A stretch of 64,000 nucleotides of DNA from Escherichia coli (GTDB taxonomy: Bacteria > Pseudomonadota > Gammaproteobacteria > Enterobacterales > Enterobacteriaceae). Below are positions 62,101 through 64,000 of this stretch, one piece after another (positions within the stretch are counted from its first letter, which is position 1; each line of letters starts with the position of its first letter). The position numbers are program-made. The DNA lies in NCBI RefSeq assembly GCF_002854065.1, contig NZ_CP024147.1; one strand, written 5' to 3'.

Positions 62101-64000
62101 CGACGCATAGGCAGAATAGCTTTTAGTTCTGCGTCAGAAAATATTGTTTCTTCTTCTATTAAGGCGGAATCTCTGGAATAATATTTTGATCTATAACGAA
62201 TAGACATTGAGTCATTGTCTTTTATATAATTACCTTCTGAATTATCGCTTACTTCTACAAGATGTTCATCACTGGTATCGATATTTGTGATTGCCAGATT
62301 ATAAGATAAATCAATGGTCACTTCATTAGTGTCATCAATTATATTTCTTACTGCAGTCCAGTACTGCATTTGTGCAAGTGAATCATTGTTGATGCCGTTA
62401 ACTAATACATGCCAAAGATGTTTTGATGATATTAGTTGATCAATGTCATTGGTTGGCAATAAATTGTTATTGCTTAAGTTTAAATATTCAAGTTTTGTAG
62501 TGGTTTTGGTGTTTAAATGTGCAATATGGTTGTCGTTTAAAGTGATTGTTTTCATCCTGAGATGATTGTGTAATATAAGGTCAGTGATCATATTGTGATG
62601 GGCACTTAACTCAATCAGAGACTCTTGCCGGGAGACATCCAGCGATGCTAGCTTGTTATAATCAAGATTAAGAAATTTTAGTTTATGACTATCAGAAATA
62701 TTAATTTTTTTAGGTTATTATTTTGCGCTTTCAGATTAACCAATGAATGCTGATTTTTTAAATCTAAACTTTCCAGATTGTTATGATCAATATAAATGTT
62801 TTCCAGATTTGATTCATTTGGAAAGGTTATCGTGTTAATTTTATTAAAGCTGAGGTTGATATTAACGAGACTGGCATTGTCAGTAAAGTCAAGACAAGTT
62901 AGACAATTGTTTTCCAGATTTAACGTATTAACTGTCGAGGGGATAGGCGGTAACTCACTCAAATCAAGATATGACAAATCAAGAGATGCCATGTTCGAAT
63001 TGTAAGCTTCTTTAATTCGCTCCACGGCAATTGCTCTTTCTTCACCATTATTAAGCGACTTATTACCCCATTGTGCCAGTTGTTCACAAAAATTTCTGGA
63101 GATGGTTTCTTTGTTAGTTGATGCGTTATTAAATTGATAACTGGCATTATTTTTTACACAAGCTGTATTAATATTGGTCATAATCACTCATCAATAAATA
63201 TTATAGTAAGATGTCCCCGGAGGGTATGGAATAATATTAATTCAGGTGAATGATCAGAAATATCAAAAATTGCTCATTTTTACTTAAGGAGTCATACAGC
63301 AGCACTTACATCAAAAACCAGCCCAGAAAAGGGCTGGTCAGGAGAGGATGTTAGAACTGATAGGTAATGCCCGTAGCGACGATGTTATCGGTGCGAATAT
63401 CTACGGCACGGGTAAAGTCGCTTTCATCAATCAGGTTGATTTTATAATCAACATAGGTCGACATATTTTTGTTGAAGAAATACGTCGCACCAACGTCGAT
63501 ATACTCAATCATGTCCTGGTCGCCGTAGCGGCCCAGATCTTTGCCTTTCGATTTCAGGTAAGCGAGTGAGGGGCGCAAGCCGAAGTCGAATTGATATTGC
63601 GCCACCACTTCAAAACTTTGTGCTTTGTTAGAAATATAACCATCGCCATAGGTGGTCATGTTTAATGTTTCAGCGTAATTAGCTGCAAAGTAGATGTTGT
63701 TGGCATCATATTTTATACCTGTAGCCCACAGTTCTGCATTCTTACCGGAGGCATTGAGAGGATTAGCAGCGGCTCTTTCCTGCGCATTTGTCCGATCGGA
63801 TTTGGTATATACCGCACCGATACCAAAGCCATCATAAACATAAGTTGAGGAGATACCGAAACCGTCACCGTTGGCACGCGTGTAGTCAGCACCATAAAGA
63901 TGACTGTTGTCAGTACGTTCATTTTTGCCTTGATATTGCGCGGCAAAGTTCAGCCCTTCAATTAAGCCAAAGAAATCGTAGTTGCGATAGGTTGCCACAC

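Follow-up and report, generated by a model that had tools for sequence, protein, structure and literature searches.

An ompD-type porin gene beside yddG in Escherichia coli, complete in close relatives and reduced to yddL in K-12

Results

The window very probably ends in the E. coli orthologue of Salmonella ompD

We analyzed a stretch of 64,000 nucleotides from Escherichia coli (NCBI RefSeq assembly GCF_002854065.1, contig NZ_CP024147.1; hereafter, the window) and found that it very probably ends in the chromosomal E. coli orthologue of Salmonella ompD. With equally high confidence, the gene as a whole is best explained as encoding a classical general-diffusion porin, made as a precursor of 366 residues. 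The gene is known already, as Z2239 in O-island 62 of strain EDL933 and as Ec042-1601 in the enteroaggregative E. coli (EAEC) strain 042, and is an ordinary accessory porin gene. Three features at the window edge belong to it:

63351-64000, minus strand: 3′ part of the porin gene, 59% of the coding sequence (gene nucleotides 452-1101, codons 152-366)
63354-63383, minus strand: sequence of the C-terminal beta-strand, ...VATGITYQF
63310-63339, minus strand: intrinsic-terminator-like hairpin from the terminator scan, GACCAGCCC-UUUUCU-GGGCUGGUU, then UUUGAUG

According to the open reading frame (ORF) listing and its translation, the minus-strand frame stays open from the window edge at 64000 to a TAA stop at 63351-63353 and comprises 215 complete codons. 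The GTG at 63998 given in that listing is merely the earliest candidate start that the window contains, as the frame is open right up to the edge. A Pfam profile search matched these 215 residues to Porin_1 (PF00267; E = 1.5e-78; 265 bits versus a cutoff of 23.7). The match runs from profile position 125 to 337, the last, and takes in the C-terminal 63% of the domain. At the other end of the frame, Y364, Q365, and F366 were invariant in 25 aligned porins; the terminal Phe is the recognition signal for outer-membrane assembly by the beta-barrel assembly machinery (BAM), as established for PhoE and OmpF. The hairpin is a GC-rich stem of 9 bp at 63339-63316, located 11 nt past the porin stop and followed by U residues. 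Folded as RNA, the region reached −21.4 kcal/mol (z = −4.8), and none of 200 shuffled sequences was equally stable. This hairpin sets the porin gene apart from the leucine-rich repeat (LRR) genes downstream. These results bear out a first-pass annotation of the window, which had claimed at least 215 residues of an OmpC/PhoE-family porin ending in ITYQF, a terminator of its own, and an N-terminus beyond the window, where codons 1-151 indeed lie past position 64000.

Locus, identity, and upstream region point to ompD

In Salmonella and Citrobacter koseri, the locus reads fdnI-fdnH-fdnG, yddG (EamA family), porin, GFA, smvA, smvR, narU, and narZ. The E. coli porin gene lies directly downstream of yddG, between fdnGHI and narU-narZ, and the order fdnGHI-yddG-porin, with narU-narZ further on, is common to Salmonella, C. 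koseri, and E. albertii. In Enterobacter hormaechei, ompD likewise adjoins yddG (PMC11874173). Moreover, approximately 170 bp 5′ of the ATG could be aligned among E. coli, C. koseri, and Salmonella ompD. The protein was 78% identical to the C. koseri porin of the same locus and 74% identical to Salmonella OmpD, followed by prophage NmpC/Lc at 69% and K-12 OmpC, OmpN, OmpF, and PhoE at 60-62%. The shared locus, the identity, and the upstream region together mark the gene as a positional orthologue of ompD that is ancestral to Escherichia. An exact-sequence look-up showed that the identical protein goes by "Outer membrane porin protein ompD" in some sources. The earlier placement in the OmpC/PhoE family thus stands as to the family (Porin_1) and is refined as to the member: by position, the gene is orthologous to ompD rather than to ompC, ompN, or phoE.

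Two other origins would deprive the gene of this status, namely a copy of ompC, as implied by the label from the NCBI Prokaryotic Genome Annotation Pipeline (PGAP), or a prophage-borne porin of the NmpC/Lc type. The protein passes the NCBIfam model NF007841 ("porin OmpC"), with 499 bits where 484 are required, and identical proteins are named "outer membrane porin protein LC" in some sources. However, NF007841 is a subfamily model that was passed by a margin of only 15 bits, and this narrow pass explains the PGAP label. The identity to K-12 OmpC (62%) and to NmpC/Lc falls below that to the OmpD-locus porins, the gene sits at yddG-narU rather than at micF-rcsD, where ompC (b2215) is located, and no phage genes are nearby. 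Position and identity thus rule out a prophage or ompC-duplicate origin, and that the gene is anything other than an ompD orthologue on either ground is scarcely credible.

Some database and literature entries were set aside. In a look-up of clusters at 90% identity, the representative was a LepA (elongation factor 4) of 603 residues and LepA was mixed with porins, an apparent clustering or indexing artefact; from this look-up, we used only the names attached to exact sequences. Likewise, the "ompD" of PMC7696260, PMC7371104, PMC10321414, and PMC6996330 is automatically named or of the prophage NmpC/Lc type, or its locus is unstated, and was not counted as evidence.

The gene is complete in two near-identical genomes

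We compared window positions 39001-64000 with the two nearest relatives in the genome collection. Strain CUWW06 (wastewater, Thailand) was 100.0% identical, with the match falling into two pieces, and strain 100416 (human stool, Gambia) was 99.9% identical in a single piece. The two-piece match is due to an extra IS1B in CUWW06. This element (28866-29563 of the extracted locus L018) lies between ansP and an Rhs/Vgr remnant region and explains ~777 extra bases; the remnant region also carries a truncated vgr gene of a type VI secretion system and a symE fragment.

Both relatives carry an uninterrupted porin gene of 1101 bp and 366 codons with no pseudogene flag (7352-8452 of the CUWW06 locus L001), and the part inside the window shows 0 nucleotide differences from either. 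In these relatives, the 451 nt past the window edge encode the signal peptide MKLKIVAVVVTGLLAANVAHA/AEVYNK, strands 1-6, and loop L3. A Sec signal peptide and the conserved mature N-terminus AEVYNKDGNKLDLYGK are therefore present in CUWW06 and 100416, outside the window. Extending the gene upstream, a check proposed in the first-pass annotation, thus yielded a complete gene with a signal peptide and an end-to-end porin alignment in two genomes of 99.9-100.0% identity. From these genomes, we infer that the 5′ end of the gene is also intact in the source strain.

Residues 22-366 of the full-length protein aligned end to end with the crystal structures of OmpK36, OmpC (2J1N), OmpF, and PhoE (E = 1e-127 to 1e-112); the alignments with OmpC and OmpK36 covered chain positions 1-346 at E of about 1e-127. 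A multiple alignment including the 100416 gene showed that the constriction residues K16, R42, R82, D113, E117, and R132 (OmpF numbering) and the PEFGG motif are all conserved. These residues and the motif fall within precursor residues 37-148, outside the window, and the terminal Phe, conserved as well, lies inside it. An AlphaFold2 model matched 2J1N and OmpK36 with template-modelling (TM) scores of 0.76-0.82. The model, run on a shallow alignment of 25 sequences, was moderately confident, with a mean predicted local distance difference test (pLDDT) score of 59.6 and almost all of residues 1-117 below 50, and is good from about residue 190 on. It serves as secondary support, and the sequence alignment with crystal structures is the stronger evidence. 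Taken together, the end-to-end structure alignment and the model match point to a predicted 16-stranded barrel, with low confidence in the N-terminal half of the model. Over its most confident part, which begins at residue 167 and extends to the C-terminus, the model shows ten strands, indicating that the porin segment of the window encodes beta-strands 7-16 together with surface loops L4-L8.

K-12 yddL is the 5′ stump of the same gene

In MG1655, the locus reads narU, yddJ (pseudogene), yddK, yddL (96 aa), and yddG. A blastn comparison of K-12 with the CUWW06 locus revealed two deletions in K-12, of which one reaches into the porin gene:

62631 to ~64167 (62631-64000 inside the window; L001 6632-8168), no strand: 1537-bp segment absent from K-12, from blastn of K-12 against CUWW06

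This segment, the counterpart of O-island 62 of EDL933, spans porin codons 94-366 and the terminator behind them, together with the 5′ part of the second LRR gene. Since the deletion takes codons 94-366, none of the porin sequence in the window is present in K-12, and the window segment and the K-12 stump do not overlap. Residues 1-93 of K-12 YddL (b1472) are identical to the full-length protein, after which KNL and a stop follow across the junction. The statement in the first-pass annotation that yddL is a short porin fragment proved accurate, as the annotated 96 residues consist of codons 1-93 plus three junction codons. K-12 yddL is thus the same gene at the same locus, with residues 1-93 and the upstream region identical or ~98% identical; unlike the full-length protein, YddL keeps only the signal peptide and ~72 mature residues and could not form a barrel. 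Our mapping agrees with the description by Okeke et al. 2011 (PMC3079680), in which O-island 62 of EDL933 comprises 1,548 bp with z2239-z2242 between yddG and narU, and yddL resembles the 5′ end of z2239.

Full-length copies, remnants, and losses among E. coli genomes

The 650-nt piece of the gene inside the window was found in 1118 of 5426 complete E. coli genomes, 1101 of which covered at least 80% of it. Among 60 evenly spaced rows of the hit list, 59 bore the annotation "porin OmpC", a full porin rather than a fragment. With the whole gene and its upstream region as the query, three states emerged: 1112 genomes, roughly a fifth of the total, had the full-length gene, an estimated ~3,000 had a K-12-type 40% remnant, and an estimated ~1,100 (CFT073, EC958, and IHE3034 types) had only ~80 nt beside yddG. 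Both estimates derive from identity bands and from evenly spaced rows of the hits to this query. Z2239 of EDL933 and Ec042-1601 of EAEC 042 represent the same gene in other strains, with allelic differences only. The protein of the O157 allele is 99.5% identical, and its part corresponding to the window differs by 1 amino acid and 5 nt. Chaudhuri et al. (PMC2808357) referred to the EAEC 042 gene as an "apparently functional ompD (Ec042-1601)". A literature search by locus tag and island returned nothing beyond PMC3079680, PMC2808357, and PMC3420319.

Selection and proteomics suggest a working protein

Between more diverged E. coli alleles, the ratio of non-synonymous to synonymous substitution rates (dN/dS; Nei-Gojobori) was 0.03-0.06, with, for example, 38 synonymous versus 5-6 non-synonymous changes. 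This indicates strong purifying selection on the porin where it is retained. Kudva et al. (PMC3420319) detected Z2239 without enrichment, with 2 peptide hits, in the proteome of O157 grown in Dulbecco's modified Eagle medium (DMEM). Purifying selection and this detection together speak for a working protein as the product of the intact form, and we infer that the porin is expressed and forms a conducting pore. The suggestion that this strain may encode a functional additional porin is accordingly supported at the sequence level by the complete gene in relatives, the pore residues, and dN/dS, as well as by the O157 proteome.

The intergenic region between yddG and the porin gene is very AT-rich (27.5% GC). 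A promoter scan of this region gave one weak sigma-70-like match, no more than in shuffled sequence, and is uninformative on expression.

Divergence from Salmonella ompD and alternative explanations

Among named homologues, the E. coli protein is closest to Salmonella enterica OmpD (STM1572) and the C. koseri porin. Besides the locus, they have in common with the E. coli gene the promoter-proximal region, the ribosome-binding site, the type of signal peptide, the L3 motif, and the C-terminal signal. In contrast, loop L4 of the E. coli protein has an 8-residue insertion relative to Salmonella OmpD, loops L5, L6, and L8 differ, and GFA-smvA-smvR of Salmonella and C. koseri are replaced in E. coli by LRR (EspR-type) genes with 32-34% GC. 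OmpC, OmpF, PhoE, and OmpN share the fold and the same pore architecture residues but are encoded at different loci, and their regulation is presumably different as well.

Several observations weigh against an ancestral and functional ompD orthologue in this strain. First, a neighbour-joining tree placed the E. coli gene as sister to the group of OmpD and NmpC/Lc, not inside OmpD. The synonymous divergence (dS) from Salmonella ompD exceeds 2 and is saturated, and the GC content at third codon positions (GC3) is 41-45% in E. coli alleles versus 54-57% in Salmonella and C. koseri; in the direct comparison with Salmonella ompD, it is 44% versus 54%. Furthermore, Salmonella and C. koseri have a perfect 12-bp seed target for MicC (GAGGTATATAAC; predicted duplex −15.8 kcal/mol), whereas this site is degraded in most E. 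coli alleles (GAAGTCTATAAC; −6.8 kcal/mol) and partly kept in AST85 (−10.0 kcal/mol). As for intactness, the first 451 nt of the gene are outside the window, strain 144 has an IS1-associated deletion, strain E01 has a 3′-truncated copy, and the yddG-adjacent porin gene of E. albertii is split by IS1. As for function, in the table of PMC3420319, Z2239 has 2 peptide hits where abundant outer-membrane proteins have 22-36, and our literature search turned up no experiment measuring pore conductance or permeability of the E. coli protein.

With regard to ancestry, C. koseri and Salmonella differ by a dS of 0.57, and the E. coli divergence looks higher than expected for an orthologue pair. The high dS may stem from AT drift beside the low-GC LRR genes or from an old allelic replacement. 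The seed-pairing site of MicC, located in codons 23-26 of Salmonella ompD, corresponds to porin codons 22-27 (L001 ~8375-8390), outside the window; it is a regulatory feature and does not define the protein family, and it appears to have been lost in most E. coli alleles. In E. albertii (CP034213.1; L017 5137-7014), IS1 leaves an N-terminal piece of 85 residues and a C-terminal ORF of 337 residues.

Because the first 451 nt lie past the edge, the intactness of the gene in the source strain rests on its close relatives. Were the gene disrupted in this stretch, it would be a pseudogene. The 5′ part is not visible in the window, 17 of the 1118 carrier genomes (~1.5%) cover less than 80% of the window's piece, and strains 144 and E01 illustrate that disrupted copies exist in particular genomes. 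Nevertheless, both genomes with at least 99.9% identity over 25 kb carry the complete gene, and all eight evenly sampled records covering the whole gene and its upstream region have a full "porin OmpC" annotation. We therefore consider a disrupted gene in the source strain very improbable.

A gene that is intact but quiescent is a more serious alternative, albeit one that we consider unlikely. Like ompN in K-12, it would be weakly transcribed and add little permeability under ordinary conditions, and would be of importance only in certain niches, or chiefly as a surface antigen or a receptor for phages. The low peptide count in O157, the AT-rich upstream region with its single chance-level promoter match, and the independent losses in K-12-type and B2-type lineages, with IS1 strikes elsewhere, are all in keeping with quiescence, and the repeated loss and IS1 hits suggest that the gene is dispensable. 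On the other hand, dN/dS implies that the protein is under selection where retained, and the promoter-proximal region is conserved with that of Salmonella ompD, which encodes an abundant porin. Z2239 was, moreover, detectable without any enrichment (PMC3420319). An intact gene encoding a working general porin thus remains the favoured explanation.

Neighbouring LRR genes

Downstream of the porin terminator, the window contains two LRR genes:

61923-63187, minus strand: LRR gene 2, split by a frameshift near 62702-62711
60604-61860, minus strand: LRR gene 1, intact, ~418 aa, 33.6% GC, 89% identical to the AST85 copy

For LRR gene 2, one frame (63181-62702) encodes the N-terminal 160 residues and a second frame (62711-61923) encodes the C-terminal part. 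The gene is intact in strain AST85 (417 aa), and the split is the same as that of z2240/z2241 in enterohaemorrhagic E. coli, named EspR2' in Sakai. PGAP annotates the O157 orthologue of LRR gene 1 as "T3SS effector leucine-rich repeat protein EspR1", that is, an effector of the type III secretion system (T3SS).

YddK of K-12 joins the C-terminal part of LRR gene 2 to most of LRR gene 1, a chimera produced by a 635-bp deletion (6759-8029 of the K-12 locus L003 versus window positions 60988-62630). The 1537-bp deletion also took the porin terminator, thereby placing yddK directly behind the porin promoter and the 93-codon stub. Such an arrangement would agree with the promoter table of PMC3946193, where a yddLKJ operon is listed.

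Discussion

Here, we describe a gene at the yddG locus of E. coli that is very probably the orthologue of Salmonella ompD and predicted to encode a general-diffusion porin. Judging by knowledge of the family, its signal peptide of 21 residues would be cleaved off after Sec-dependent export, and the mature protein would be recognised by BAM via the C-terminal ...YQF strand, fold into a 16-stranded barrel, and then trimerise. Loop L3, with its PEFGGD motif and the equivalents of D113 and E117, would fold into the barrel and face the basic equivalents of K16, R42, R82, and R132, and the resulting constriction would admit small hydrophilic solutes. Of this predicted architecture, the window covers strands 7-16 and loops L4-L8 as well as the assembly signal and the terminator, and the signal peptide, strands 1-6, and L3 lie past its edge.

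The intact form is very probably ancestral. K-12-type strains lost codons 94-366 through the 1537-bp deletion, leaving yddL, and B2-type strains lost nearly the whole porin gene. That K-12 yddL is the 5′ stump of ompD undercuts published speculation on an independent function of YddL (PMC9976479). The exact deletion junction, the misleading "OmpC" label, and the apparent loss of the MicC site are useful by-products of this analysis. For this gene, the database label "porin OmpC" is misleading.

A bolder reading, which we put forward as speculative and improbable, is that the OmpD-type porin of E. coli is part of a lineage-specific surface module, marked by its linkage to EspR-type LRR genes, its remodelled loops, and its lost MicC control. 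In strains of the phylogroup D/E/F type, the porin could then act mainly as a niche antigen, adhesin, or phage receptor and not as a housekeeping pore. If so, the repeated K-12-type and B2-type deletions could reflect phage or immune selection.

The porin repertoire affects antibiotic entry, sensitivity to phages and colicins, and antigenicity, and in this respect the gene matters modestly. Strains like the one analyzed here probably carry one general porin more than K-12, a difference that bears on the use of K-12 permeability models for O157, EAEC 042-type, or similar strains.
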